Of a stretch of 11,609 nucleotides of DNA, positions 175 through 11,609 are shown one piece after another. The stretch comes from a virus (lineage: Duplodnaviria > Heunggongvirae > Uroviricota > Caudoviricetes): the IMG/VR virus record IMGVR_UViG_2802429218_000006, positions 1 through 11,609 of that record; one strand, written 5' to 3'. Numbering within the stretch: position 1 is the first letter of the stretch; each line of letters begins with the position of its first letter. A program made the translations under genes and the position numbers. The notes beneath the pieces are model-generated. The model had not been told where the DNA came from and made no database searches. It worked only from the letters and a program-made list of their open reading frames with translations.

Positions 175-1362
175 ATGGCTCTAACCGATATACAGATCAA
201 ACGTGCAAAACCACAAGACAAACCATACACATTGAACGATGGACAAGGTCTGTCATTGCTTATCAATCCCGATGGCTCGAAAGGCTGGCGTTTCCGTTTC
301 CGGTTTGCAGGGAAAGCGCGGTTAATGTCATTTGGCAGCTACGATTTAGTAAGCCTTGCAGAAGCACGTGAGAAGCGTGACGTCGCCCGTAAGCAGGTTG
401 CGAATGGCATTGATCCTGTAGAGGAACGCAAAGCTTCAAGACTCGCTCAAAAGCTATCAACAGAAAATTCTTTCGAAGCCATATGTCGAGAATGGCATAC
501 CAACAGAGCTGACCGCTGGACAGTGGCCTATCGAGAAGAAATCATTAAGACATTCGAGCAAGATGTGTTCCCGTTCATTGGTAAACGCCCTATCAGTGAA
601 ATCAAACCATTGGAACTGCTTGAGGTATTGCGACGAATAGAGAAGCGTGGCGCATTAGAGAAGACAAGAAAAGTACGTCAAAGATGCGGTGAGGTATTTC
701 GTTATGCAATCGTAACTGGCCGAGCTGATTACAATCCAGCACCTGATTTAGCTATCGCGCTGGCCGTACCCAAGCAAAAACATTATCCGTTCTTATCCGC
801 AGAAGAGTTACCTCATTTTATTCGAGATCTGGAGGCATATACCGGCAGTATCATTACTAAAAATGCTACAAAGATAGTTATGCTAACTGGTGTTCGAACA
901 AAAGAGATGCGCTTTGCTACATGGGATGAGATTGACCTTGAGAAGGGGATATGGGAAATCCCAGCCGAAAGGATGAAAATGCGCAGACCTCACATAGTGC
1001 CGCTTTCTACTCAGGTAATCGACCTTTTCAAGCAACTCAAGCCGATTACTGGTCACTACCCTTATATTTTTATTGGCAGGAACAACCGTAGTAAACCGAT
1101 CTCAAAAGAAAGTGTGTCACAGGTAATTGAGTTACTAGGTTACAAAGGACGTGCTACCGGTCACGGTTTTAGACATACAATGTCGACAATTTTACATGAA
1201 CAGGGATTTGATAGTGCTTGGATTGAAATTCAGTTAGCCCATGTAGATAAAAATAGTATTCGAGGTACTTATAATCATGCTCAATATCTTGATAATCGGA
1301 GAAATATGATGCAGTGGTATGCGCAGCATATATATGGAAAAGTTATACAAGAGTCTAAATAA
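175..1362 (+). CDS. int: P4-family tyrosine integrase
   Basis: 395-aa ORF with an N-terminal arm-binding-like region, then a catalytic core showing box I Arg (LTGVRTKE), HGFRH (His-x-x-Arg) and a C-terminal Tyr (IRGTYNHAQY). Sits immediately next to the selC-derived att core. Confidence 0.9.
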   Translation: MALTDIQIKRAKPQDKPYTLNDGQGLSLLINPDGSKGWRFRFRFAGKARLMSFGSYDLVSLAEAREKRDVARKQVANGIDPVEERKASRLAQKLSTENSFEAICREWHTNRADRWTVAYREEIIKTFEQDVFPFIGKRPISEIKPLELLEVLRRIEKRGALEKTRKVRQRCGEVFRYAIVTGRADYNPAPDLAIALAVPKQKHYPFLSAEELPHFIRDLEAYTGSIITKNATKIVMLTGVRTKEMRFATWDEIDLEKGIWEIPAERMKMRRPHIVPLSTQVIDLFKQLKPITGHYPYIFIGRNNRSKPISKESVSQVIELLGYKGRATGHGFRHTMSTILHEQGFDSAWIEIQLAHVDKNSIRGTYNHAQYLDNRRNMMQWYAQHIYGKVIQESK

Positions 1363-1402
1363 ATTACTCATGAAGAAATATAGTCAATTATTAGGATGAA
1401 AT

Positions 1403-3058
1403 ATGATTAGTGCAAAAAACATTCTTTTCAGCAGTCGACATACTGATGCTGATGTAACTTTACATATCAATAATGTTATAAGATACCCCAAAAAATATAT
1501 GAATAATCATATCTATATATTAGATATAGACATGTATATTCAGACTGAAGACATGAAAAATCAAGCATATATAGATAATGACATTAGAAGCCCCCTGAAA
1601 ATGCTATTTATTGGAGAGGAACTAACAGAGTCAACTTTATTTGACTTATTATCCCAATCAGAAATATCGCTTCATGAAGTTAAGGTTAAATATGAATTTG
1701 ATTATATCTGTCAGATGTCAGAAGATGGATATAGATACATCAACAATAAATTAGAAACAGTCGCTTCATTATCTTTACTTAGAGCTATTAAGGATTTTGG
1801 TGTAAACTACAATATTATAAGAAACAAATCCTTTCTAAAAAAATATTCAGACAAGATATTCTCTACGTTATTACTAGATAACACTTTCAGTTCTTATGCC
1901 TTTGAAAATGGCTATAAATATTTTAATGTCGATGATGGTGCCGTTTACCAATTACAGCCCCCAACAAAATTTATTATTTATGACGAAGAAAAACAGCCGT
2001 ATAAACTTAAGATGGAGAGTCTGTTAAATATTAATATACCTATTCATGCACTAATTGGTAAGAATGGTAGCGGGAAAACCTATTTAATTAATAAAATAAT
2101 CAAACAATCTATTTCAACTGACCTAGAAATAAGATCTTCTGGCGCAGTTTTTAGTCGAATGATAGTTTTATCAAATACAATAAATGATAAGTGCTATAGA
2201 CCGGCAAATATAACCAAAAACAAATTCAAGTTAAATAACTATCATTTTGTATCGTTAACATCAGAAAAATATTATAATAAGCTTTTCCCACGAGGGAAAA
2301 AGCTAACTCTATTTTCTTTATTAGAAAAAATACAGAAACGAGATTCTAATAAGCGAGGTAACTTTGAACAGGGGGATTTGCTTGATAGAGTTACTCAAGA
2401 TATTATTCCCGAGTTTTCTTTTTCCATTAAAACAAATCTTGGGGAGCATATTTACAATAGTTTTTTAGAGTTAACTAGACAATATGGATTAGTTAATTTA
2501 AACTCAAACTTAGACTTAATTACGAGTTCAGAAATCGAATATGCATTACCTGATGAAGATATCCATTTCTATAAAAATAATGAACCCTTTACCTTAAGCT
2601 CAGGGCAATTATCTTTTTTAGTTAGCATGTTTTCTCTAATCTCAACAATAGAGAGTAATAGTCTTATACTTATAGAGGAACCAGAAAATTTTTTACACCC
2701 AAGTTTATTAACACATTTTATAAACTCACTAACACACATTCTAAGAGATACTAATTCTATCGCAATTATGGCCACCCACTCTGCTTTGGTACTTAGAGAA
2801 ATCCCTTCAGCACAAATAACAATCCTACATAGAAGAGACAATATCACCAACTATAAAACACCGAATATTGAAACATTTGGTGCCGATACTCATCAAATAA
2901 TGATAGACGTTTTTGGTGATTTATACTCTAATGCGATATTTAGAGAAGAGCTATCAAACATTGCAAAAAACAAAACAATCGATGAATTATTAGTGCAGTA
3001 TGGTGATTTACCTTCTGATGTATTAAATAAAATCATCATGGAGAAAAATTCAAAGTGA
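1403..3058 (+). CDS. ABC-type (SMC-head-like) ATPase with a ~200-aa N-terminal extension of unknown function; first gene of the candidate defence cassette
   Basis: Walker A GKNGSGKT (aa 219-226, nt 2057-2080); ABC signature LSSGQ (aa 398-402); Walker B LILIEEPENFLHP (aa 421-433, nt 2663-); H-loop ATHS (aa 457-460). Shine-Dalgarno AGGA lies 7 nt upstream of the ATG. Strongly AT-rich codon usage unlike the backbone. Confidence 0.85.
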   Translation: MISAKNILFSSRHTDADVTLHINNVIRYPKKYMNNHIYILDIDMYIQTEDMKNQAYIDNDIRSPLKMLFIGEELTESTLFDLLSQSEISLHEVKVKYEFDYICQMSEDGYRYINNKLETVASLSLLRAIKDFGVNYNIIRNKSFLKKYSDKIFSTLLLDNTFSSYAFENGYKYFNVDDGAVYQLQPPTKFIIYDEEKQPYKLKMESLLNINIPIHALIGKNGSGKTYLINKIIKQSISTDLEIRSSGAVFSRMIVLSNTINDKCYRPANITKNKFKLNNYHFVSLTSEKYYNKLFPRGKKLTLFSLLEKIQKRDSNKRGNFEQGDLLDRVTQDIIPEFSFSIKTNLGEHIYNSFLELTRQYGLVNLNSNLDLITSSEIEYALPDEDIHFYKNNEPFTLSSGQLSFLVSMFSLISTIESNSLILIEEPENFLHPSLLTHFINSLTHILRDTNSIAIMATHSALVLREIPSAQITILHRRDNITNYKTPNIETFGADTHQIMIDVFGDLYSNAIFREELSNIAKNKTIDELLVQYGDLPSDVLNKIIMEKNSK

Positions 3059-3954
3059 GAATTTTATCTAAGCCAGAGGGTATTGATGATCTACTTAATA
3101 ATATAGATCTTAACTCATCTATTGATGCCTTTTTATCGCTCGATGAACCGACTGGAATTGCTGACTTAAGAAATAAAAAAAATGATCTCTTGAACGAAAT
3201 TGAGAATTATCACACTGAGATGATTGAACGAGGTCATTTATCACATAACACGAGAAAAAACTTCTCAAAATATAAATCCATACTTGAGTGGATTTATTAT
3301 CACCCAAGTCAGCGAAGAAAAACAGACTACATAAACTCGATACGAAAACTTTACGCCCAAAGTGGAACTCTATGTCCTTACTGTGGGGTTTCTCCTTGCA
3401 GGACATTAGACCATTACTACAACAAAGCTTTATTACCACAGTTTTCATTTCTTCCTGAAAACCTTATTCCGTGCTGTGGTGATTGTAATAGAGACAAGGG
3501 AGCAAAAAAAGCCTTTAGCAAATGGAGAAGATTTGTCAATCCATTCTATGATGATTTCTCATCGTTAGAAAAAAATGAACCTCTCATATATATAATTTTC
3601 AAAGAAAGACCAAGATCTAGAATTGACATGGAATATGTAATGACAGCCAATCATAATCTAGACTTTTTAATAAGAAAACAAATAAACTATCACATTAGAA
3701 CAGTAAGAATCCCTTTCTATCATCATGAAGCCATAAGCAATTCATTTTGGAGAAACGCGAAAGACCTAATAAAGTTTAAAAAATTAGTCACTGACGGTGA
3801 TATAGATAATACAATTTATGATAAAATCATTGATGGTTTCATAGGCAAAAACAATGCTATGAATTATGACTGGGAATATATTATTAGATATTCATTAGTC
3901 AAACTTCGTATTAATCACTGGATTTATAACAGCAACCTACCAAAATTAATGTAG
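3055..3954 (+). CDS. HNH endonuclease-domain protein; second gene of the candidate defence cassette
   Basis: Zinc-finger HNH core CPYCG..LDHYY..N..CCGDCNRDKG (aa 107-148, nt 3373-3498) flanked by ~100-aa N-terminal and ~150-aa C-terminal regions of unknown function. GTG start at 3055 overlaps the TGA stop of the ATPase (GTGA), indicating translational coupling. Same AT-rich composition as the ATPase gene. Confidence 0.85.
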   Translation: MRILSKPEGIDDLLNNIDLNSSIDAFLSLDEPTGIADLRNKKNDLLNEIENYHTEMIERGHLSHNTRKNFSKYKSILEWIYYHPSQRRKTDYINSIRKLYAQSGTLCPYCGVSPCRTLDHYYNKALLPQFSFLPENLIPCCGDCNRDKGAKKAFSKWRRFVNPFYDDFSSLEKNEPLIYIIFKERPRSRIDMEYVMTANHNLDFLIRKQINYHIRTVRIPFYHHEAISNSFWRNAKDLIKFKKLVTDGDIDNTIYDKIIDGFIGKNNAMNYDWEYIIRYSLVKLRINHWIYNSNLPKLM

Positions 3955-4144
3955 CTCCAAAGAATGCATTAGCCTTGATGGTATATTTCAGTAGCATTGA
4001 GGCTAGTGTAAGGCCTAACTGGCAGGTAGCATCGAACAAAATACAAGCGCATTTATTAATTCTCAATTAGGTTGTTTAAAAATGATTCGAAAATATTTCA
4101 CCTGCTTAGGAGAAAAGAAAAAACATTTATCACTGCCACGCGCA

Positions 4145-4163
4145 GTGCTTTCCCCGCCTCGCC
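4145..4163. other. cos site: 19-nt cohesive end of P2/P4 type
   Basis: Plus strand reads GTGCTTTCCCCGCCTCGCC, the reverse complement of GGCGAGGCGGGGAAAGCAC (the P2/P4 cohesive end as I recall it). Flanked by GC-rich hairpins at 4160-4230. Lies between the cargo and psu, as in P4. Confidence 0.8.
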
Positions 4164-4264
4164 CGCCCGCTTTGCGGGGCAGTTTTAATGCAGTTTCACT
4201 GACACGCTCAGGCCGCGCCGGGAATGGCGCGGTCTGCAGAAAATGAGGCAGGAAAACGCATGCA

Positions 4265-4297
4265 AAGCCATGCACCTTATCGATGCATGGCTTTTTT
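4265..4297 (+). terminator. Rho-independent terminator-like hairpin (10-bp perfect stem plus T6) between cos and psu
   Basis: AAGCCATGCA (4265-4274), 9-nt loop, TGCATGGCTT (4284-4293), then a T-run to 4297. The T-tail is on the plus strand, so it would stop transcripts coming from the cargo or cos side. Confidence 0.55.
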
Positions 4298-4327
4298 CAG
4301 TAAAATCGGACGGATTTTCGGGGAGTT

Positions 4328-4900
4328 TTACACAGACTGACATGATGCCAGTTGCGCACTTTTACGCGAAAAAATCATGTTCTGCGCAGGGGTGAATTTT
4401 TCACGGCTGTCATCCACCGAAGCCGCGTCAGGCCTGAATCCGATGGTCGTTAAAATGTCGCTATCCTGTGCGGAATAATTAATTTTTTCACCCTTTGCAA
4501 GCCAGGACAGAAGGGCTTCACGCAGGGCATCTGTGGCACGCTGTATGGCACAGTTTCGGGCAATGGCCGTCAGCTCACTGTAGCCCATCAGCTCCGGTGC
4601 CAGTGCCGCCGCCAGTGCTGTGCCGTGCTGCTGCATAAAATCATTCAGCCGGTCGCGGATGCTGATGTGCTGAACGGCTTCATGCGAACGAATATAACGA
4701 CCGGCGGCCTGATTCACCTGCCATTTTCTGACTTCGATAATATTGCGTAATTCGTCCAGGCGACTGACGTTTCTGCCTTCCCCGGACAGAAGCCGCAGAT
4801 ATTCCTGTTCGGCCGCAGCCAGCTCATTTTTGCGTTGCAGCCATGCTGCTTTGTTATTCTGACAGGTGTCAAAGGCCTGCTGTAAGGCTGTGCTTTCCAT
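4328..4900 (-). CDS. psu: Polarity suppression protein Psu (capsid decoration / Rho antagonist)
   Basis: 190-aa ORF, the same length as P4 Psu, in the P4 position as last gene of the sid-delta-psu operon next to cos. N-terminus MESTALQQAFDT... matches my recollection of P4 Psu. Confidence 0.85.
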   Translation of the reverse strand: MESTALQQAFDTCQNNKAAWLQRKNELAAAEQEYLRLLSGEGRNVSRLDELRNIIEVRKWQVNQAAGRYIRSHEAVQHISIRDRLNDFMQQHGTALAAALAPELMGYSELTAIARNCAIQRATDALREALLSWLAKGEKINYSAQDSDILTTIGFRPDAASVDDSREKFTPAQNMIFSRKSAQLASCQSV

Positions 4901-4973
4901 CGTTATCTCTTTCTCATCATGCTGAAGAATAAAAATACGGTGTGCGGCGACGGCCGGTGTTAACCGGCAGCCC

Positions 4974-5474
4974 TCATTCCAGACGCAGCGAATATGATTG
5001 TGTTTTTAAGCGTACTGGCGGCAGTTCCTGTTTTTCATGCAGGCTTTCTGCCAGTTCGTCCGGCGTGACCGGGCGGACAATGAAACGGTTGATGGTCTGA
5101 AGCGTTTTAAACACCAGACCACAGCCCGGATCCGTGCACACATAAAAACGCTCGGTGACTTCCTGAGACAGACGCCGCGATGTTCTTGACAGTGCAAGGC
5201 CTTTACATCTCCGACAACAATATCCGGTAACAAGCATTCTTTTCGGGCGTTTCATGCTACCGGAGGCTGACGTCAGTGAATCGCGGTATCTCTGTTTGCC
5301 TGAAATGTATTCCATTCCTGAATCTTTACAGTCAGAGAAAAAGCTTTCACTCGCTTCAAATGTCGCAGAGCAATAAATATTCCGGCACTGTGCAATCATT
5401 ATCTTGGTGCCATCGTCCATGAAATGTGCGCGACGGGTGTGAGCAACATGTCCACACGACGGGCAGTAAATCAT
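4974..5474 (-). CDS. delta: Delta, a tandem Ogr-type zinc-finger late transcription activator
   Basis: 166 aa (the P4 Delta length). The N-terminal half follows the P2 Ogr pattern (CPSCGH.AH.R..DGTK...C.N..CSATF) and a second Cys4 module sits in the C-terminal half (CCRRC...CTDPGCG). Its start overlaps the sid stop (ATGA). Confidence 0.9.
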   Translation of the reverse strand: MIYCPSCGHVAHTRRAHFMDDGTKIMIAQCRNIYCSATFEASESFFSDCKDSGMEYISGKQRYRDSLTSASGSMKRPKRMLVTGYCCRRCKGLALSRTSRRLSQEVTERFYVCTDPGCGLVFKTLQTINRFIVRPVTPDELAESLHEKQELPPVRLKTQSYSLRLE

Positions 5475-6205
5475 GACAGCAGTCCTCTGGCCTTAAGCTC
5501 TGCTCCCTGCTGGTCTATTTTGTCCTGCCACACCTTGCGCTGTGCCGGTGTGCCTGCCACCTCATAATCCATGTGCGGGAGTGTTGCCGCTGACAGTCCG
5601 GTCAGCCGGAGAACCGGCTCGCCGGTGAGGCTGATTTGCATCTGTTTAATTTTCTGTTCCAGCGATGATTTCACCTGCTGCATGACAGCCTTTTCCGGTG
5701 CGACGTAGCCCTGATGGCCGGTGGTGTTGGCGAGCGGATTTTCCTGTACCAGTATGCTCAGATGCATTGCCCGGACAAGCGCCTCACAGGTTTCATTCAG
5801 GGCGTGTTCCAGCTCATTCTCTGCATACAGACTCAGAAGGTGATGATGTGCCTTCCGGTAGGCGGTGGCCGTGCTGTCACACGCCCCTTTCAGGCGTTCA
5901 CGTTCAAAATTCAGCACCACGGCCAGATTGTCATATTCCTGTACCAGCTCCCGGCGTGCCACGCGCTCAATGTGGCGCTGTTTCAGCTCGTCGCTCAGGA
6001 CACCACCGGCTGCACGAAAGGCCGTGCGCCAGTCGTCAGCGTCGTTTCCGTCGGCCTGCGCCAGCGCATTTTTTTCCTGCTCTGCCCGTTCAATGGCCGT
6101 GACGGTCTCATCCATCAGGCGGGCGTTCTCAAGATGGGCGGCTCTGGCCTTTTCCAGTTGTGCCAGCGCGGGTTGCAGATATTCAGGGATGGTGTTGTCA
6201 GACAT
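5471..6205 (-). CDS. sid: Sid external scaffold / capsid size-determination protein
   Basis: The ATG at 6205 with a GAGGAG Shine-Dalgarno gives 244 aa, the P4 Sid length. The ORF track extends to a GTG at 6223 (250 aa), which I consider less likely. First gene of the late operon. Confidence 0.8.
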   Translation of the reverse strand: MSDNTIPEYLQPALAQLEKARAAHLENARLMDETVTAIERAEQEKNALAQADGNDADDWRTAFRAAGGVLSDELKQRHIERVARRELVQEYDNLAVVLNFERERLKGACDSTATAYRKAHHHLLSLYAENELEHALNETCEALVRAMHLSILVQENPLANTTGHQGYVAPEKAVMQQVKSSLEQKIKQMQISLTGEPVLRLTGLSAATLPHMDYEVAGTPAQRKVWQDKIDQQGAELKARGLLS

Positions 6206-6239
6206 TTTCCGGCTCCTCGTCACTTCAGGTTAAGAAAAT

Positions 6240-6295
6240 TGTGACGTACACCGGACAACAACACGACGCATTGCAGATGTGCCAGCCCTGACACA
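6240..6295. promoter_or_regulatory. Late-promoter region with two TGT-N12-ACA dyads: candidate Delta/Ogr binding sites for the divergent Psid and PLL promoters
   Basis: TGT(6240-6242)-N12-ACA(6255-6257) and TGT(6278-6280)-N12-ACA(6293-6295). The second is centred about 55 bp upstream of a plausible sid transcription start near 6230. The motif is short, so chance occurrence is possible. Confidence 0.4.
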
Positions 6296-6374
6296 GGAGA
6301 CTCATCCTCAGACCGGCAAGCCAGGAAAAGGTCGCAGGAAAAACCGGCTTACTGTTTGTTTTTTTATGTTTTAC

Positions 6375-6478
6375 TGTTCACCTCTGTTCACCATAAGAAA
6401 AAAGATAAGTAATACAGTAAGTTAAAGGGTGAGCAATCGCAGTAATGACTGTTCACCGTCTGTTCACCACTGTTCACC
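6375..6478. repeat. ori-like iteron cluster: five copies of the TGTTCACC octamer (type I iterons, alpha-binding), followed by an AT-rich stretch (6479-6570)
   Basis: TGTTCACC at 6375-6382, 6385-6392, 6450-6457, 6461-6468 and 6471-6478. The same octamer is reiterated in crr downstream of alpha, about 4.8 kb away. Confidence 0.75.
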
Positions 6479-6756
6479 CGTTCATGGACTTTTTGTGCTG
6501 TGTATTACTTTTTATTTTTATTAATTAACTGAAATAAATAAGAAAAAACAATTTGTATTTCACTATAATTTTTTCCAGCTCCTTCCAGAGCGTTTTAAAG
6601 CTATCTGGCGCTGATGTGCAAAAAACACACAGCAATTGTAAGGCTGCCGGAACAAATCCCCCCTGTTGCGTCTGCTGAAAATATTCACAAAATAAAGCGC
6701 TACCCGAAGCCGGACGGACTTATCCGGTGCTGTATGGACATTAACGAGGTAGCCCG

Positions 6757-7023
6757 ATGCAAGCTGTTTTTTCTTCCCCGTCTCCTGCCCCTGTGACGCC
6801 ACTGATGCCGCTGCCGGACATCACGCAGGAGCGTTTTTTACGTCTGCCGGAAGTGATGCACCTGTGCGGCCTGTCACGCTCGACCATCTACGAACTCATC
6901 CGTAAGGGGGAATTTCCGCCGCAGGTGAGTCTTGGCGGTAAAAATGTGGCCTGGCTGCACTCTGAAGTCACCGCATGGATGGCCGGGCGCATTGCCGGAC
7001 GCAAACGGGGGTACGACGCATGA
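6757..7023 (+). CDS. vis: Vis / AlpA-family helix-turn-helix regulator (excision and late-gene control)
   Basis: 88 aa (the size of P4 orf88/vis) with an AlpA-like HTH segment ([28 protein letters not shown]). GAGG Shine-Dalgarno 8 nt upstream. First gene of the plus-strand left operon. Confidence 0.75.
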
Positions 7024-7574
7024 TGATGCCTGTTCTGCAAAAACTCCCTTTTTCTGGCTTGCCTTTTTCCGGCATTTGCGGATATAGTTTTTCCGCTGTC
7101 GCAAAATCGGCAGCCGGGCGTAGGAACCCGAGTTACTTCAAGGCGACATATGACGCGCCATGCGTCTTTTTTTACGTCGTTGCTTCGGCACACCTGTTTT
7201 TCTGGCTGTGGTTTTTAAACCGTAGCCTCTGTCAGATAATGGTGGTCCGGGCGGGGCAGCCTTCGGGCTGGCCGGTTTCCTTGAAGGCCGGTATTCCTAC
7301 CCCCGTCCGGGCTACCACCCATGAGCGTAGGAACTCCAGTGGTAGCTGTAACTGTTACTTCAAGGAGGCTGCCATCATGGCTACAACCCTTACCCCCTCA
7401 CACCCTGAATTTGTCTTTGTGTTTGCGGCTGTCCGTCGCGCAGACCGTCATCCCCGTATCTGCATGCTTCGCACCGTCGCCGGTGATGAACGCAGCGCCC
7501 GCCGTTCCCTTGTCCGTGACTATGTGCTCTCCCTTGCTGCCCGTCTGCCGGTGGTGGAGGTGTCCCGTGCGTAA
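6975..7574 (+). CDS. Possible eta-like ORF (199 codons) that reads through the immunity-RNA region, with the kil-like ORF nested in the same frame
   Basis: A 600-nt open frame starting inside vis, upstream of the PLE-like promoter, and spanning the structured RNA region. Consistent with the nested kil/eta arrangement described for P4, but the protein is low-complexity and could be an artefact of GC-rich sequence. Confidence 0.3.
7059..7088 (+). promoter_or_regulatory. Candidate sigma-70 promoter (PLE-like) driving the immunity / left operon
   Basis: TTGCCT (7059-7064), 18-bp spacer, TATAGT (7083-7088), about 30 bp upstream of seqA. Confidence 0.45.
7118..7143 (+). promoter_or_regulatory. seqA-like target site for the immunity RNA
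   Basis: GCGTAGGAAC..TTACTTCAAGG. The two blocks are complementary to CCTTGAAG (7279-7286) and TTCCTAC (7294-7300) inside the structured RNA. Confidence 0.55.
7241..7320 (+). ncRNA. cI: CI-like immunity RNA (P4-type antisense RNA carrying seqB); boundaries approximate
   Basis: Highly structured segment: GGTGGTCCGGGCGGGG pairs with CCCCGTCCGGGCTACCACC (one G-T wobble and a 3-nt bulge), plus an internal CAGCC-TTCG-GGCTG hairpin. The internal seqB blocks are complementary to both flanking seqA and seqC. Confidence 0.5.
7325..7365 (+). promoter_or_regulatory. seqC-like target site overlapping the ribosome-binding site of the kil-like ORF
   Basis: GCGTAGGAAC (7325-7334) and TTACTTCAAGG (7355-7365) repeat the two seqA blocks. 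The second block runs straight into the AGGAGG Shine-Dalgarno of the ORF starting at 7377. Confidence 0.55.
7377..7574 (+). CDS. Small kil-like protein (65 aa); resembles the Ash/Icd-like small proteins of P4-type prophages
   Basis: Strong AGGAGG Shine-Dalgarno 8 nt upstream of the ATG. First ORF after the immunity RNA. Sequence [25 protein letters not shown]... Confidence 0.55.
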
Positions 7575-7854
7575 TAAAAAAGCCCCTCAGACCGTCTCAG
7601 CGCGTCATGACGCCCGTGAACACCTCAGCATTGAGGCTTACCATAAGCTCAACCGCGCCAGCGCCGTATCCCAGTTTGTTGGGGGTGATTTGATTCACCG
7701 TGAACTCTCCGGCCTGCATCAGCTCTACATTCCGCATATTTTCAGTTACCTGAATGAAGATATTGATTTTGTGCTGAATGAACTGAAAGCCAAAGGCCTG
7801 TGCCGCGATTTTCTCGCCCAGCAGAAAGACCGGGGAGACAGGACGCATGTTTGA
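7567..7854 (+). CDS. Epsilon-sized small protein (95 aa) with a GTG start; position and size match P4 epsilon, the derepression protein
   Basis: No in-frame ATG exists. The GTG at 7567 is preceded by GGAGG at 6-nt spacing and overlaps the stop of the kil-like ORF. Product length is exactly 95 aa. Identification is by synteny and size only. Confidence 0.45.
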
Positions 7855-8308
7855 TTTTCCCCAGCCCGGTGAGATTTACCGTTCTGCCGGTTTTCCCGAT
7901 GTGGCCGTGGTCGGCATTCTGGAAGACGGTATTCCGTGGGAAATGCCGTACCGCTGCCCGGACATTGTCTGGAACCCGTACCGCCGTAAATTCAGTATCC
8001 TTGTGCGTATCCTCGCTGACGGGCGCACCACAGACATCCCGCTGGGGCGTTTTCTGCGGGAATTTACCTGTGACCGTCCTGACCTGTTCAAACGCAGCCC
8101 CGTAAACCGGCATGCGGTACTGAAAGAAATGGCCGGAGACCCGGAATTACAGAAATGGCGGGAGAAATATCTGGATATTTACCCGCAGGACCCTGTTCCG
8201 GTCAGCCGGGCGGCACCGGTGGCGCGGGAATGGCGGGAAATTCCCCGCACGGAGCCTGACCCGGCCCCCCCCCCCCGGATAACAGTTACCGCAATTATCT
8301 GTAATTAA
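7847..8308 (+). CDS. Hypothetical protein, orf151-like by position (153 aa); contains a C12 homopolymer near its 3' end
   Basis: ATG overlaps the stop of the preceding ORF (ATGTTTGA). The C12 run at 8265-8276 encodes the PAPPP segment of the product. Confidence 0.6.
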
Positions 8309-8439
8309 AAAACGACACCCGAAAAATTAAATGTGCGTATTCGCGCAGGGATACGCACGTCTTCAGGAGACGCAGATATGTCTTATCAGTTAATGCAACC
8401 GGCACGGAATGCAGTCATCTGTCACAGGGAGGAAAGCAA

Positions 8440-8760
8440 ATGAAAACACCCTTACCGCCCGTCTTACGCGCTGCCCTTTACCGTCGCGCTGTCGCCTGTG
8501 CCTGGCTGACCGTGTGCGAACGTCAGCACCGCTACCCGCATCTCACCCTTGAGTCACTGGAGGCGGCCATCGCCGCTGAGCTGGAAGGCTTTTATCTGCG
8601 CCAGCACGGTGAGGAAAAAGGGCGCCAGATAGCCTGTGCCCTGCTGGAAGATTTAATGGAATCCGGCCCCCTGAAGGCCGCGCCGTCGCTGTCCTTTCTC
8701 GGGCTGGTTGTGATGGATGAACTCTGTGCCCGTCACATAAAAGCGCCGGTACTGCACTGA
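8440..8760 (+). CDS. cnr: cnr-sized protein (106 aa); copy-number-control candidate
   Basis: GGGAGG Shine-Dalgarno. 106 aa equals P4 cnr (orf106), and it lies immediately upstream of alpha as in P4. Identification is by synteny and size only. Confidence 0.5.
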
Positions 8761-8774
8761 AGGAGAACAACACC

Positions 8775-11108
8775 ATGAAAATGAACGTAACCGCCACCGT
8801 CAGCCATGCGCTCGGCCACTGGCCGCGTATTCTCCCGGCGCTGGGGATTCAGGTGCTGAAAAACCGTCATCAGCCCTGTCCGGTCTGTGGCGGGAGTGAC
8901 CGCTTCCGTTTTGATGACAGGGAGGGGCGCGGCACCTGGTACTGCAATCAGTGTGGTGCCGGTGACGGCCTGAAACTGGTTGAAAAGGTGTTTGGTGTTT
9001 CCCCGTCCGACGCGGCCGCAAAGGTGGCTGCCGTGACCGGCAGTCTGCCACCGGCTGACCCGGCAGTGACGGCTGCCGCCGGTGCTGAAACAGACGCTGC
9101 CCGGAAGAACGCCGCCGCACTGGCACAAACCCTGATGGCGAAAACCTGTCCCGGAACCGGTAACGCCTACCTGACCCGCAAGGGCTTTCCCGGCCGGGAA
9201 TGCCGGATGCTGACCGGCACACACAGAGCCGGTGGCGTGAGCTGGCGCGCCGGTGACCTTGTGGTGCCACTGTATGACGACAGCGGCGAACTGGTTAACC
9301 TTCAGTTAATCAGTGCTGACGGCCGTAAGCGCACCCTGAAAGGCGGACAGGTCAGGGGCACCTGTCACACCTTTGAAGGACAGAATCAGGCCGGAAAACG
9401 TCTGTGGATAGCGGAGGGATACGCGACCGCACTTACCGTGCATCACCTGACCGGTGAAACGGTGATGGTGGCGCTTTCTTCCGTGAATCTCCTTTCTCTG
9501 GCCAGCCTTGCCCGGCAGAAGCATCCGGCCTGTCAGATTGTCCTTGCCGCAGACCGTGACCTCAGCGGTGACGGCCAGAAAAAAGCCGCCGCAGCCGCAG
9601 ATGCGTGTGAAGGTGTTGTTGCCCTGCCGCCGGTCTTCGGTGACTGGAATGATGCCTTCACGCAGTACGGCGGGGAAGCCACCCGTAAGGCCATTTATGA
9701 TGCCATCCGGCCACCGGCTGAAAGCCCGTTCGACACCATGAGCGAAGCGGAGTTTTCCGCCATGAGTACCAGCGAAAAGGCCATGCGTATCTATGAGCAT
9801 TACGGCGAGGCGCTCGCGGTCGATGCCAACGGCCAGCTTCTGTCCCGTTATGAAAATGGTGTCTGGAAGGTGCTGCCACCACAGGACTTTGCCCGGGATG
9901 TGGCCGGGCTGTTTCAGCGGCTGCGTGCGCCGTTCTCCTCCGGGAAGGTGGCCTCCGTGGTGGACACCCTGAAGCTGATTATTCCGCAGCAGGAAGCCCC
10001 CTCCCGCCGCCTGATTGGCTTTCGTAACGGCGTGCTCGACACGCAGAACGGCACGTTCCACCCGCACAGTCCGTCACACTGGATGCGCACCCTGTGCGAT
10101 GTGGATTTCACCCCGCCGGTGGAAGGGGAAACGCTGGAAACCCACGCCCCCGCGTTCTGGCGCTGGCTTGACCGTGCCGCCGGTGGCCGTGCGGAAAAAC
10201 GCGACGTGATTCTGGCCGCACTGTTTATGGTGCTGGCAAACCGCTACGACTGGCAGCTCTTTCTGGAGGTGACCGGTCCCGGCGGCAGCGGCAAAAGTAT
10301 CATGGCCGAAATAGCCACCCTGCTGGCCGGGGAGGATAACGCCACGTCGGCCACCATCGAGACGCTGGAATCCCCGCGTGAACGTGCCGCGTTAACTGGC
10401 TTCTCACTGATACGCCTGCCGGACCAGGAAAAATGGAGCGGCGACGGTGCCGGACTCAAGGCCATCACCGGCGGCGATGCGGTGTCCGTTGACCCGAAAT
10501 ACCGGGATGCATACTCCACGCATATCCCGGCGGTAATTCTGGCCGTGAACAATAACCCGATGCGCTTCACCGACCGCAGCGGCGGCGTGTCACGCCGGCG
10601 GGTGATTATTCACTTCCCGGAACAGATAGCCCCGCAGGAGCGCGACCCGCAGCTTAAGGACAAAATCACCCGCGAGCTGGCGGTCATCGTGCGTCACCTG
10701 ATGCAGAAGTTCAGCGACCCGATGCTCGCCCGGTCACTGCTTCAGTCCCAGCAGAACTCAGACGAGGCACTGAACATCAAACGGGATGCCGACCCGACGT
10801 TTGATTTTATCGGCTATCTGGAAACCCTGCCGCAGACCAGCGGCATGTATATGGGGAACGCCAGTATCATCCCGCGTAATTACCGTAAATACCTCTATCA
10901 CGCCTATCTGGCCTACATGGAGGCAAACGGCTACCGGAATGTACTCAGTCTGAAAATGTTCGGGCTGGGGCTGCCGGTGATGCTGAAGGAATACGGACTG
11001 AATTACGAGAAGCGCCATACCAAACAGGGGATACAGACCAACCTGACGCTGAAAGAGGAAAGCTACGGCGACTGGCTGCCAAAATGTGACGACCCTGCAA
11101 CAACCTGA
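8775..11108 (+). CDS. alpha: Alpha primase-helicase replication protein
   Basis: 777 aa (the P4 alpha length). N-terminal zinc-ribbon primase motif CPVCGGSDRFRFDD..WYCNQCG, a TOPRIM-like region, and a C-terminal helicase Walker A GPGGSGKS. AGGAG Shine-Dalgarno upstream. Confidence 0.92.
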   Translation: MKMNVTATVSHALGHWPRILPALGIQVLKNRHQPCPVCGGSDRFRFDDREGRGTWYCNQCGAGDGLKLVEKVFGVSPSDAAAKVAAVTGSLPPADPAVTAAAGAETDAARKNAAALAQTLMAKTCPGTGNAYLTRKGFPGRECRMLTGTHRAGGVSWRAGDLVVPLYDDSGELVNLQLISADGRKRTLKGGQVRGTCHTFEGQNQAGKRLWIAEGYATALTVHHLTGETVMVALSSVNLLSLASLARQKHPACQIVLAADRDLSGDGQKKAAAAADACEGVVALPPVFGDWNDAFTQYGGEATRKAIYDAIRPPAESPFDTMSEAEFSAMSTSEKAMRIYEHYGEALAVDANGQLLSRYENGVWKVLPPQDFARDVAGLFQRLRAPFSSGKVASVVDTLKLIIPQQEAPSRRLIGFRNGVLDTQNGTFHPHSPSHWMRTLCDVDFTPPVEGETLETHAPAFWRWLDRAAGGRAEKRDVILAALFMVLANRYDWQLFLEVTGPGGSGKSIMAEIATLLAGEDNATSATIETLESPRERAALTGFSLIRLPDQEKWSGDGAGLKAITGGDAVSVDPKYRDAYSTHIPAVILAVNNNPMRFTDRSGGVSRRRVIIHFPEQIAPQERDPQLKDKITRELAVIVRHLMQKFSDPMLARSLLQSQQNSDEALNIKRDADPTFDFIGYLETLPQTSGMYMGNASIIPRNYRKYLYHAYLAYMEANGYRNVLSLKMFGLGLPVMLKEYGLNYEKRHTKQGIQTNLTLKEESYGDWLPKCDDPATT

Positions 11109-11124
11109 CCATCATGACTCATCT

Positions 11125-11149
11125 GACCGGCATCTGCCGGTCTTTTTTT
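11125..11149 (+). terminator. Rho-independent terminator downstream of alpha
   Basis: GACCGGC (11125-11131), loop ATCT, GCCGGTC (11136-11142), then T7 (11143-11149): a perfect 7-bp stem. Confidence 0.8.
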
Positions 11150-11166
11150 ATCCCTGAATTCCCCGA

Positions 11167-11468
11167 AGGTGAACAATCCACTGTTCACCCTTCACCGTAT
11201 ATTCACTCGTTATCACACTGAAATTAAAAGAGAAAAACGAAAGGTGAACAGTGTGAACAATCAAATCAAAAAAAACTTTTTTTCTCCCTGTGTGATTTCA
11301 GTACGGGGGATTAATCACCGGTATGAGTCACACCGGCAGAATGCCGGAGGTGAAGAATCGAATGTTCACCCTTCACCCATTATTCACTACCTATCATACT
11401 GAAATAAAAGGAGAAAAAAGAAAGGTGAACAGTGTGAACAGTTCTTTCGAAAAAAAATTTTTTTCCTG
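11167..11468. repeat. crr (cis replication region): two ~121-bp direct repeats (11167-11287 and 11348-11468, period 181 bp), each carrying TGTTCACC / GGTGAACA iterons and ending in an A8/T8 tract
   Basis: The repeats align along their whole length with a few substitutions. Iterons at 11168-11175, 11182-11189 and 11243-11250, plus the equivalent positions in the second copy. Confidence 0.8.
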
Positions 11469-11516
11469 AGTTAACGTGCGTGAAGATACGTGTAAAAATT
11501 AATCGATAGATATTAT

Positions 11517-11536
11517 ATGTATAAGGATGTGTATAA
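11517..11536. promoter_or_regulatory. Candidate integrase arm-type binding sites (ATGTATAA / ATGTGTATAA) on the attR side
   Basis: Same tandem motif pair as at 124-143 on the attL/int side. Confidence 0.4.
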
Positions 11537-11593
11537 ATGAATTATAATAGAAAAATATAAACGATTTGAATCAAATGGTTATATGGCAATTTT

Positions 11594-11609
11594 GACTCCT
11601 GTGATCTTC
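11594..11609. repeat. attR core: direct repeat of the selC 3' end (GACTCCTGTGATCTTC, truncated by the window edge)
   Basis: Matches the selC segment immediately 5' of the bases at window positions 1-12. The T at 11593 where selC has C marks the edge of identity. Confidence 0.6.

Follow-up and report, generated by a model that had tools for sequence, protein, structure and literature searches.

What kind of system is encoded by the two-gene cassette that lies between the integrase gene (int) and the cos site of a P4-like satellite, and is it a new one? The DNA analysed here, referred to throughout as the window, is the whole 11,609-nucleotide stretch of IMG/VR record IMGVR_UViG_2802429218_000006, and its cassette consists of a gene for a 551-amino acid (aa) ATPase followed by a gene for a 299-aa HNH nuclease. 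A preliminary description made from the sequence alone had proposed that the pair is an anti-phage defence system that resembles Septu (PtuA ATPase and PtuB HNH nuclease) and that may represent a distinct or undescribed family. We examined the gene structure of the cassette, its motifs, which are intact, the homology and fold relations of the two proteins, their conserved pairing, and the hotspot and defence-island context in which they occur. On this basis we consider it likely that these two genes form an anti-phage system of the Septu kind, which belongs to a divergent 'long' clade catalogued as PDC-M01 and which the satellite carries as exchangeable cargo at its int-cos hotspot. The earlier interpretation named the kind of system correctly, a Septu-like defence cassette at the P4 hotspot, but was mistaken about its novelty.

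Both open reading frames (ORFs) of the cassette (Table 1) are improbable by chance, because a stop codon is expected about every 12 codons at the base composition of this island: at the 30.8% GC of the slot, the chance of a stop-free frame is approximately 7e-21 for 551 codons and approximately 1e-11 for 299 codons. The GTGA tetranucleotide shared by the ATPase stop and the HNH start indicates translational coupling, and an overlap of 4 bp (or 1 bp) is also present in homologous loci. RefSeq/PGAP places the ATPase start at window position 1553, which gives a protein of 501 aa. The start at ATG-1403 is better, because the 50 codons upstream of the RefSeq start (window 1403-1552) are kept in homologues down to 25% identity and ATG-1403 has its own Shine-Dalgarno sequence; as judged from these alignments, the RefSeq start is probably too short. 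For locus NZ_PTMY01000008, Table S1A of Rousset et al. 2022 gives three proteins (WP_032153997, WP_097292092, and WP_097292093), where the window and RefSeq show two slot genes.

The catalytic motifs of the 551-aa protein (Table 1) are all intact and identify it as an ABC/OLD-type ATPase, and its Pfam AAA_21 match scores 48.4 bits against a cut-off of 27. The Walker A residues N221 and K225 are invariant also in the 55-sequence ATPase alignment, and E426 in the extended Walker B motif is presumed to be the catalytic glutamate. The 299-aa protein is, on the same kind of evidence, an HNH nuclease with a beta-beta-alpha-Me site and a Cys4 zinc finger: its HNH core residues are invariant in 71 homologues, N145 being nearly invariant (at least 90%), and its cysteines are spaced as C107-P-x-C110 and C141-x-x-C144. 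Taken alone, the Pfam HNH match of this protein lies below the cut-off (12.7 versus 21.4 bits). The preliminary description had given the coordinates, strands, and lengths of both ORFs exactly (551 and 299 aa), and its calls of an ABC-type ATPase and of an HNH nuclease both hold, the former with all motifs present and AAA_21 above the cut-off, the latter with the HNH motif and the Cys4 finger conserved across the 71 homologues. The two residues it had singled out for mutation are also the appropriate ones, K225 being the Walker A lysine that is invariant in the 21-sequence alignment and H120 the invariant histidine of the D119-H120 motif. Outside the HNH core, D166 (window 3550-3552) and H213 (3691-3693) are invariant in all 71 family members and might belong to a second functional site, or to an interface, in the C-terminal domain. 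A further observation concerns residues 99-166 of the nuclease (window 3349-3552), which share 36% identity over 68 aa (E = 1e-6) with Ea31 of phage lambda (orf206b, b region).

The relatives of the two proteins were sought by profile and by structure. With the ATPase family profile as a query, the nine best matches among PDB sequences were PtuA chains (E-values from 6.5e-16 to 2.3e-11), above OLD (5.6e-10) and AriA (8e-9). AlphaFold2 models built on the family alignments reached a predicted local distance difference test score (pLDDT) of 82.4 and a predicted template modelling score (pTM) of 0.82 for the ATPase, and 90.9 and 0.86, respectively, for the HNH protein. When these models were compared with the PDB using Foldseek, the top 39 matches of the ATPase were all PtuA chains (from Retron Ec78/Eco7/Ec83 and E. 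coli Septu; best E = 1.4e-8), and the top 8 matches of the HNH protein were PtuB chains. The whole-protein fold of the HNH partner resembles PtuB beyond the HNH core, as a multi-domain PtuB-like protein, and in these models its kinship with PtuB is visible mainly at the level of the fold.

PADLOC models, whose matches were judged by E-value without PADLOC's own score thresholds, placed both proteins in the same catalogued candidate system. The best model for the ATPase was PDC-M01A (1.5e-48), with ten PDC-M01A models among the matches listed, one of them covering residues 18-533. The best model for the HNH protein was PDC-M01B (7.1e-27), and 24 of its 25 top models were PDC-M01B, one of them covering residues 26-297. 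The PADLOC PtuA1/PtuA model PDLC00282 also matched the ATPase (1.3e-36), residues 106-535 aligning with profile positions 87-498 of 520. In the B. cereus group, what is called PDC-M01 is also called Septu (PMC11811056), and a plasmid-borne pair from Bacillus wiedmannii matched both PDC-M01A (1.6e-201) and, over its full length, the PtuA1 model PDLC00282 (3.6e-82); the HNH family studied here aligned with the HNH-side partner of that pair at 99.9% over 275 columns. Within P4 slots, Rousset et al. 2022 (PMC9122126) report in row 17 of their Table S1B an AAA_15/AAA_21 plus HNH_4 pair at 80 loci, labelled 'Septu'. This row-17 Septu is a full-length homologue of the cassette (99.1% for the HNH protein, over 249 columns, and 98.9% for the ATPase, over 359 columns that take in the N-terminal region), and the best PADLOC model for its HNH protein was likewise PDC-M01B (2.6e-37), with PtuB1 reaching only 1.8e-8. 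The short P4-borne pair in row 26 is canonical PtuA1/PtuB1 (PADLOC 4.9e-162 and 8.2e-86). The HNH protein of the cassette itself (WP_097292093) stands in Table S1A of the same study, without a system name. The gene order is also that of Septu, with adjacent and co-oriented ATPase and then HNH genes in all homologous loci examined. Altogether, these profile relations make the cassette a divergent member of the catalogued 'long' Septu clade PDC-M01.

The likeness to Septu that had been proposed for the pair is thus upheld by the PADLOC PtuA1 match and by PtuA and PtuB as the nearest solved folds. Its placement in a distinct or undescribed family is not, given the PDC-M01 matches, a row-17 homologue already labelled Septu, and an HNH protein already present in Table S1A. 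The profile and structure searches yielded a catalogued kind (PDC-M01, the PtuA1 model, and PtuA/PtuB folds) and not a full-length canonical PtuA/PtuB. The preliminary description had also considered both proteins larger than expected for PtuA and PtuB. Large size is no evidence for a new family, because the proteins of one validated lactococcal system of the Septu type are 537 and 443 aa long (PMC11381338); the retron-associated PtuA has 550 aa.

The location of the cassette points in the same direction. The window is a P4-like satellite of E. coli integrated at tRNA-Sec; NZ_CP063349 matches it at 98% identity over 95% of its length, and P4 (NC_001609) at 97.3% identity across 4164-11463, the linear P4 record aligning from 4164, i.e., at cos. 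P2 matches window positions 4131-4205, and the P2/P4 cos, the reverse complement of GGCGAGGCGGGGAAAGCAC, lies at 4146-4164. Homology to three sister satellites with other cargo, as detected by BLASTN, ends at 1320-1323 and restarts at 4139, and the slot was placed at about 1321-4138 because homology breaks off and resumes there. The variable segment opens within the last ~14 codons of int (about 1321), so that cargo exchange seems to involve the 3' end of this gene. The GC content of the slot is about 29-33%, versus 50-64% in the P4 backbone to the right of cos and 42-47% across int. In sister satellites with a 98%-identical backbone, the same slot holds a dCTP deaminase, GapS4ab, a reverse transcriptase (RT) with SLATT, or a KAP NTPase. 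This P4 locus has been shown experimentally to be a defence hotspot, in which the reference P4 arrangement is gop-beta-cII (Rousset et al. 2022, PMC9122126). Separately, identity to the sister satellites is 98% rightward from 4139 but 88-89% up to 1320-1323, and the window appears as a mosaic of an int part (1-1362) and a backbone part (4139-11609) that differ accordingly.

The pair is also found well beyond this satellite. Full-length members of the ATPase family (~545-560 aa) occur in Klebsiella, Citrobacter, Serratia, Enterobacter, Aeromonas, and Rheinheimera, and the HNH profile collects 688 proteins, all of ~265-300 aa, from Proteobacteria and Bacteroidota. The two proteins diverge in parallel in the same genomes, with ATPase/HNH identities of 88%/85% in Klebsiella, 54%/58% in Serratia, 51%/55% in Aeromonas, 47%/49% in Rheinheimera, and 35%/40% in K. 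aerogenes, and their genes are adjacent, overlapping or abutting, at every homologous locus examined. Judged by these comparisons, the ATPase and the HNH nuclease are inherited as a pair across Enterobacterales, Aeromonas, and Rheinheimera. The pair resides in P4-like satellites of Serratia (at ssrA) and Citrobacter, beside ThsA/ThsB (Thoeris), VapBC, and ParE in a metagenomic island, beside a DUF4011 helicase-nuclease, ParE/RelB, and an insertion sequence (IS) in Rheinheimera, and beside Mrr and IS66 in Pseudomonas. In Aeromonas it is a stand-alone chromosomal pair, and the 8 kb flanking it on each side contain no called mobile-element genes. A mobile defence module classically shows such a pattern of neighbourhoods. 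Among 5426 complete E. coli genomes, the cassette was present in 6, always in this slot, and 2865 genomes matched part of the window, not all of them necessarily with intact satellites; the exact proteins occur on hundreds of draft contigs of E. coli, Shigella, and Salmonella. Of the six copies in complete genomes, the one in E. coli MSI001 (NZ_CP076645.1, hit H16) is interrupted by the IS5-like element ISKpn26, and this copy is therefore probably inactivated. In Citrobacter youngae (L006, 4097-5849), a CBASS operon (CD-NTase and Cap15) lies directly upstream of the satellite integrase, so that the satellite, Septu-like cargo included, has come to sit beside a defence locus that was already there. 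Of what had been proposed about this locus, the position between int (175-1362) and cos (4146-4164) was accurate, and so was the expectation of variable defence cargo in the P4-family slot, as the known defence genes of the sister satellites show. The candidacy for defence stands on the hotspot slot and on the defence neighbours (Thoeris, CBASS, toxin-antitoxin [TA] modules, and Mrr); the novelty of the family does not stand.

How would such a cassette act? In the complexes solved for Septu and for retron PtuAB, one PtuB is gripped between the C-terminal domains of a PtuA dimer with bound ATP, the dimers being assembled into 6:2 or 4:2 complexes, and ATP binding or hydrolysis restrains the nuclease until a phage cue releases or activates it, with an abortive-infection-like outcome (PMC12065111, PMC12673091, PMC12819146, PMC13096335). 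By analogy, the cassette probably works like Septu, and it is from these systems that we infer its complex formation, trigger, target, anti-phage activity, and the role of its N-terminal domain. The ABC-type ATPase would dimerise around ATP, and its conserved C-terminal helices would keep the HNH nuclease in an inactive complex until a phage cue, or a drop in ATP, turns the complex on. The zinc-finger HNH nuclease would then cut nucleic acid, which might be phage or host DNA or a tRNA, and this cleavage would halt phage replication, probably at a cost to host growth. The distribution of conservation along the ATPase bears on the roles of its ends. Mean identity is 58% in the C-terminal helical region (471-551) versus 57% in the core, and 30-40% in the N-terminal domain, of which the first 100 residues (30%) diverge about twice as fast as the core. 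The N-terminal domain is modelled with a block-mean pLDDT mostly of 81-94 over residues 1-170 (64 at 51-60). Its 205 residues had no Pfam, NCBIfam, or PDB sequence match, and when residues 1-205 were run exhaustively with phmmer against 1.84 billion representatives, only 8 proteins came back, mostly fragments of the same family. Because residues 471-551 are conserved and residues 1-205 are hypervariable and family-specific, we propose a division of roles in which the C-terminus would hold the nuclease and the N-terminal domain would detect the trigger or determine the state of assembly; this fast-evolving 205-residue domain would be the best candidate for the sensing or assembly element. The N-terminal domain of Retron-Eco7 PtuA, which docks the RT and its multicopy single-stranded DNA (RT-msDNA; PMC12673091), provides a parallel for such a role. 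A more specific possibility, which we put forward only tentatively, is that the 'long' clade PDC-M01 is mechanistically distinct. Its fast-evolving ATPase N-terminal domain would directly recognise a phage protein, taking the part that RT-msDNA has in retron PtuAB, and its enlarged nuclease, with extra N- and C-terminal regions and the invariant residues D166 and H213, would have another mode of assembly or another target (DNA versus a specific tRNA) than both solved types of Septu.

Several observations weigh against assigning the cassette to the Septu kind. The fold scores are modest, with template modelling (TM) scores of only 0.33-0.37 for the ATPase model against PtuA and 0.41-0.47 for the HNH model against PtuB. 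By sequence, the match of the HNH protein to solved PtuB is marginal (E about 0.02), and the HNH family profile found nothing among PDB sequences at E <= 0.01. The canonical short PtuAB aligns in the catalytic cores only (128 and 53 columns), and the NCBIfam equivalogs were missed widely, with 36.7 versus 500 bits for PtuA (NF041760) and 20.7 versus 150 bits for PtuB (NF041761); these two models were built on the retron Ec78 type, and failing them rules out the canonical/retron subtype without ruling out Septu in the broader sense. The inserted and dimerisation regions of the ATPase are unlike those of solved PtuA, so that oligomeric state and regulation may differ, and because Septu-type systems vary in their target (DNA or tRNA-Tyr) and in their ATP dependence, the analogy fixes neither. 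No recognisable promoter was found in the 40 bp between int and the ATPase gene. In the searchable literature, we found neither an experiment on the 'long' clade nor a published experimental validation of PDC-M01. Membership of canonical PtuA/PtuB was rejected on the equivalog scores and on the cores-only alignment with the short P4-borne PtuA1/PtuB1. The same two results, together with TM-scores below 0.5 for both PtuA and PtuB and an ATPase N-terminal domain without relatives outside the family, would also fit a new ATPase plus HNH defence family that is Septu-like only through shared generic domains. This we regard as unlikely, and the reading as an undescribed family was dropped after PADLOC had been calibrated with the row-17 and row-26 proteins and the Bacillus pair.

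It is similarly doubtful that the pair is a TA-like module for addiction or for competition between elements, in which the ATPase would restrain a nuclease toxin and whose main benefit would lie in stabilising the satellite or in keeping out plasmids and other mobile elements, not lytic phages. The toxicity of retron-displaced PtuAB to its host (PMC12819146) would agree with such a function, as would the movement of the pair on mobile elements, its position near TA modules, and the IS5-like inactivation of one E. coli copy, which is compatible with a fitness cost. Stand-alone Septu systems, however, protect against phages and need both activities to do so (PMC13096335, PMC11381338), the P4 slot is experimentally a defence hotspot (PMC9122126), and the Aeromonas chromosomal pair lies apart from called mobile-element genes, all of which favours the Septu-kind defence system.

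Some cos phages use an HNH protein together with terminase. A packaging-associated or homing HNH endonuclease is nevertheless highly improbable here: the gene does end at 3954, ~190 bp from cos, and its core does resemble lambda Ea31 and phage HNH PHROGs, but the gene is missing from P4 and from 98%-identical sister satellites and the pair exists without cos, which excludes a packaging function, and moreover the gene is always coupled to the ATPase, also occurs away from cos or terminase, is as rare in complete E. coli genomes as stated above (6 of 5426, against 2865 matching part of the window), and encodes a 299-aa multi-domain PtuB-like fold.

Table 1. Features of the cassette and of its surroundings (window coordinates; a dot means no strand)
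Feature	Position	Strand	Basis or details
P4-type tyrosine integrase gene, left border of the slot	175..1362	+	ORF; tyrosine recombinase in the NZ_CP063349 annotation
Variable cargo slot (defence hotspot), low-GC island	1321..4138	.	BLASTN against three sister satellites with other cargo
Shine-Dalgarno AGGA of the ATPase gene	1393..1396	+	read from the sequence; 6 nt upstream of ATG-1403
PtuA-like ABC/OLD-type ATPase gene, PADLOC PDC-M01A clade	1403..3058	+	ATG start, 551 aa
Family-specific N-terminal domain of the ATPase, residues 1-205	1403..2017	+	beta-rich 1-71, helical 76-174 (AlphaFold2 model)
Walker A, G219-KNGSGK225-T226	2057..2080	+	G219, N221, G222, S223, G224, K225 invariant in 21-sequence alignment
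ABC signature, S399-S400-G401-Q402 (LSSGQ)	2597..2608	+	invariant in 21-sequence alignment
Walker B with OLD/AAA_21-type extension, L421-ILIEEPENFLHP433	2663..2701	+	E426, P427, E428, L431, P433 invariant in 55 sequences
H-loop, T458-H459-S460	2774..2782	+	H459, S460 invariant in 21- and 55-sequence alignments
GTGA overlap of HNH GTG start and ATPase TGA stop	3055..3058	+	sequence
PtuB-like HNH nuclease gene, PADLOC PDC-M01B clade	3055..3954	+	GTG start, 299 aa
HNH catalytic core and Cys4 zinc finger	3373..3498	+	C107, C110, D119-H120, N136, C141, C144, N145, K148
Imperfect hairpin, 13 nt past the HNH stop	3967..4008	+	17-nt arms, 76% complementary; no T-run after it
cos cohesive-end sequence, right border of the slot	4146..4164	.	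GTGCTTTCCCCGCCTCGCC
Perfect hairpin with 11-bp stem, followed by T6	4264..4300	.	AAAGCCATGCA/TGCATGGCTTT, 9-nt loop; between cos and the psu stop codon

The signals around the cassette suggest how it is expressed. In the satellites of Serratia (L002) and Citrobacter (L006), a 4-bp overlap joins the end of int to the start of the ATPase gene, and the cassette is probably co-transcribed with int. A scan for promoters and terminators turned up nothing convincing as a promoter upstream of the ATPase gene, its hits being fewer than in shuffled controls, and the segment 1363-4144 that the preliminary description had proposed for cloning holds just 40 bp 5' of the ATPase gene, with no recognisable promoter. 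On the other side, the perfect hairpin with T6 beyond cos is likely to act as a bidirectional terminator, for rightward transcripts from the slot and for psu from the other side; the consensus scan missed it because its loop is longer than 8 nt.

Elsewhere in the window, two RNA matches lie above the Rfam gathering score, the isrK Hfq-binding RNA at 7095-7172 (+ strand, 70.5 bits) and the C4 antisense RNA at 7235-7322 (+ strand, 86.1 bits), the latter being the P4 CI immunity RNA region. Two direct repeats of ~120 bp at 11163-11284 and 11344-11465, which are 83% identical and have a 181-bp spacing, match what X05623 annotates as the cis replication region (crr) of P4. A search for att repeats in the window found none.

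These results add a further documented case of P4-like satellites shuttling defence cargo, and they show at least three very different versions of Septu in the int-cos slot: the short canonical one, the long one of row 17, and the present cassette. They also flag a probable start-site error in RefSeq for the ATPase and show that the PDC-M01 candidate of PADLOC and 'Septu' are of the same broad kind. No new category of immunity is opened and the practical value is modest; the hypervariable N-terminal domain of the 'long' clade is a reasonable place to seek a phage-sensing module.

PARIS (AriA/AriB) and OLD/Gabija also use an ABC ATPase of the AAA_15/AAA_21 superfamily to control a nuclease, and PARIS is also cargo of the P4 hotspot, but their nuclease is Toprim or DUF4435 and not HNH, and AriA and OLD score under PtuA (8e-9 and 5.6e-10 versus 6.5e-16). 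In PARIS the partner, AriB, is a DUF4435/Toprim protein, and in OLD and GajA a Toprim nuclease is fused to the ATPase, with or without a GajB helicase. The HNH partner here had no DUF4435 or Toprim match, AriA models lay far below PDC-M01A and PtuA for the ATPase, no Toprim domain was found in the 551-aa ATPase (Pfam and NCBIfam), and the slot contains no helicase gene. The type I-A retron systems (Retron-Eco7/Ec78 and Ec83) have PtuA and PtuB as effectors, and the cassette proteins stay far under the cut-offs of the NCBIfam equivalogs. PtuB of Retron-Eco7 carries C43/C46/C78/C90 and H57 (PMC12673091), a Cys4 plus catalytic His arrangement that parallels the HNH protein here. Its PtuA has an N-terminal domain of just 63 aa versus ~205 aa here, and a coiled-coil insert without a counterpart in our ATPase, the distance from Walker A to Walker B being ~300 aa there and ~200 aa here. 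Retron parts were absent from the slot: no RT or msr/msd was found in it, Rfam shows only C4 and isrK elsewhere in the window, and the two cassette genes are the sole long ORFs in 1321-4138, the others being three short antisense or out-of-frame ORFs of 56-109 aa. PARIS, OLD/Gabija, AbiL, and type I-A retrons were ruled out by the type of partner or by the lack of an RT. Canonical stand-alone Septu (E. coli PDB 8EE4/8EE7/8EEA; row 26) is likewise a two-gene operon of an ABC ATPase and a zinc-finger HNH nuclease; alignment with it reaches 99.2% for the C-terminal half of the ATPase (E = 1.6e-19) and 93% for the HNH core, and PtuA and PtuB are the closest solved folds. PDC-M01, an unpublished candidate of PADLOC-DB v2, has both best models, the gene order, and the adjacency in common with the cassette, which is a distant member of it (1e-27 to 1e-48, versus 1e-106 to 1e-201 for the Bacillus member). 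The row-17 Septu differs from the cassette by an identity of 13-15% in profile alignments, BLASTP picking up no more than Walker A and, at 31% over 75 aa, the HNH core, and it shares with it the same P4 slot and the same architecture, with Walker A near residue 220 and an HNH protein of ~280 aa.

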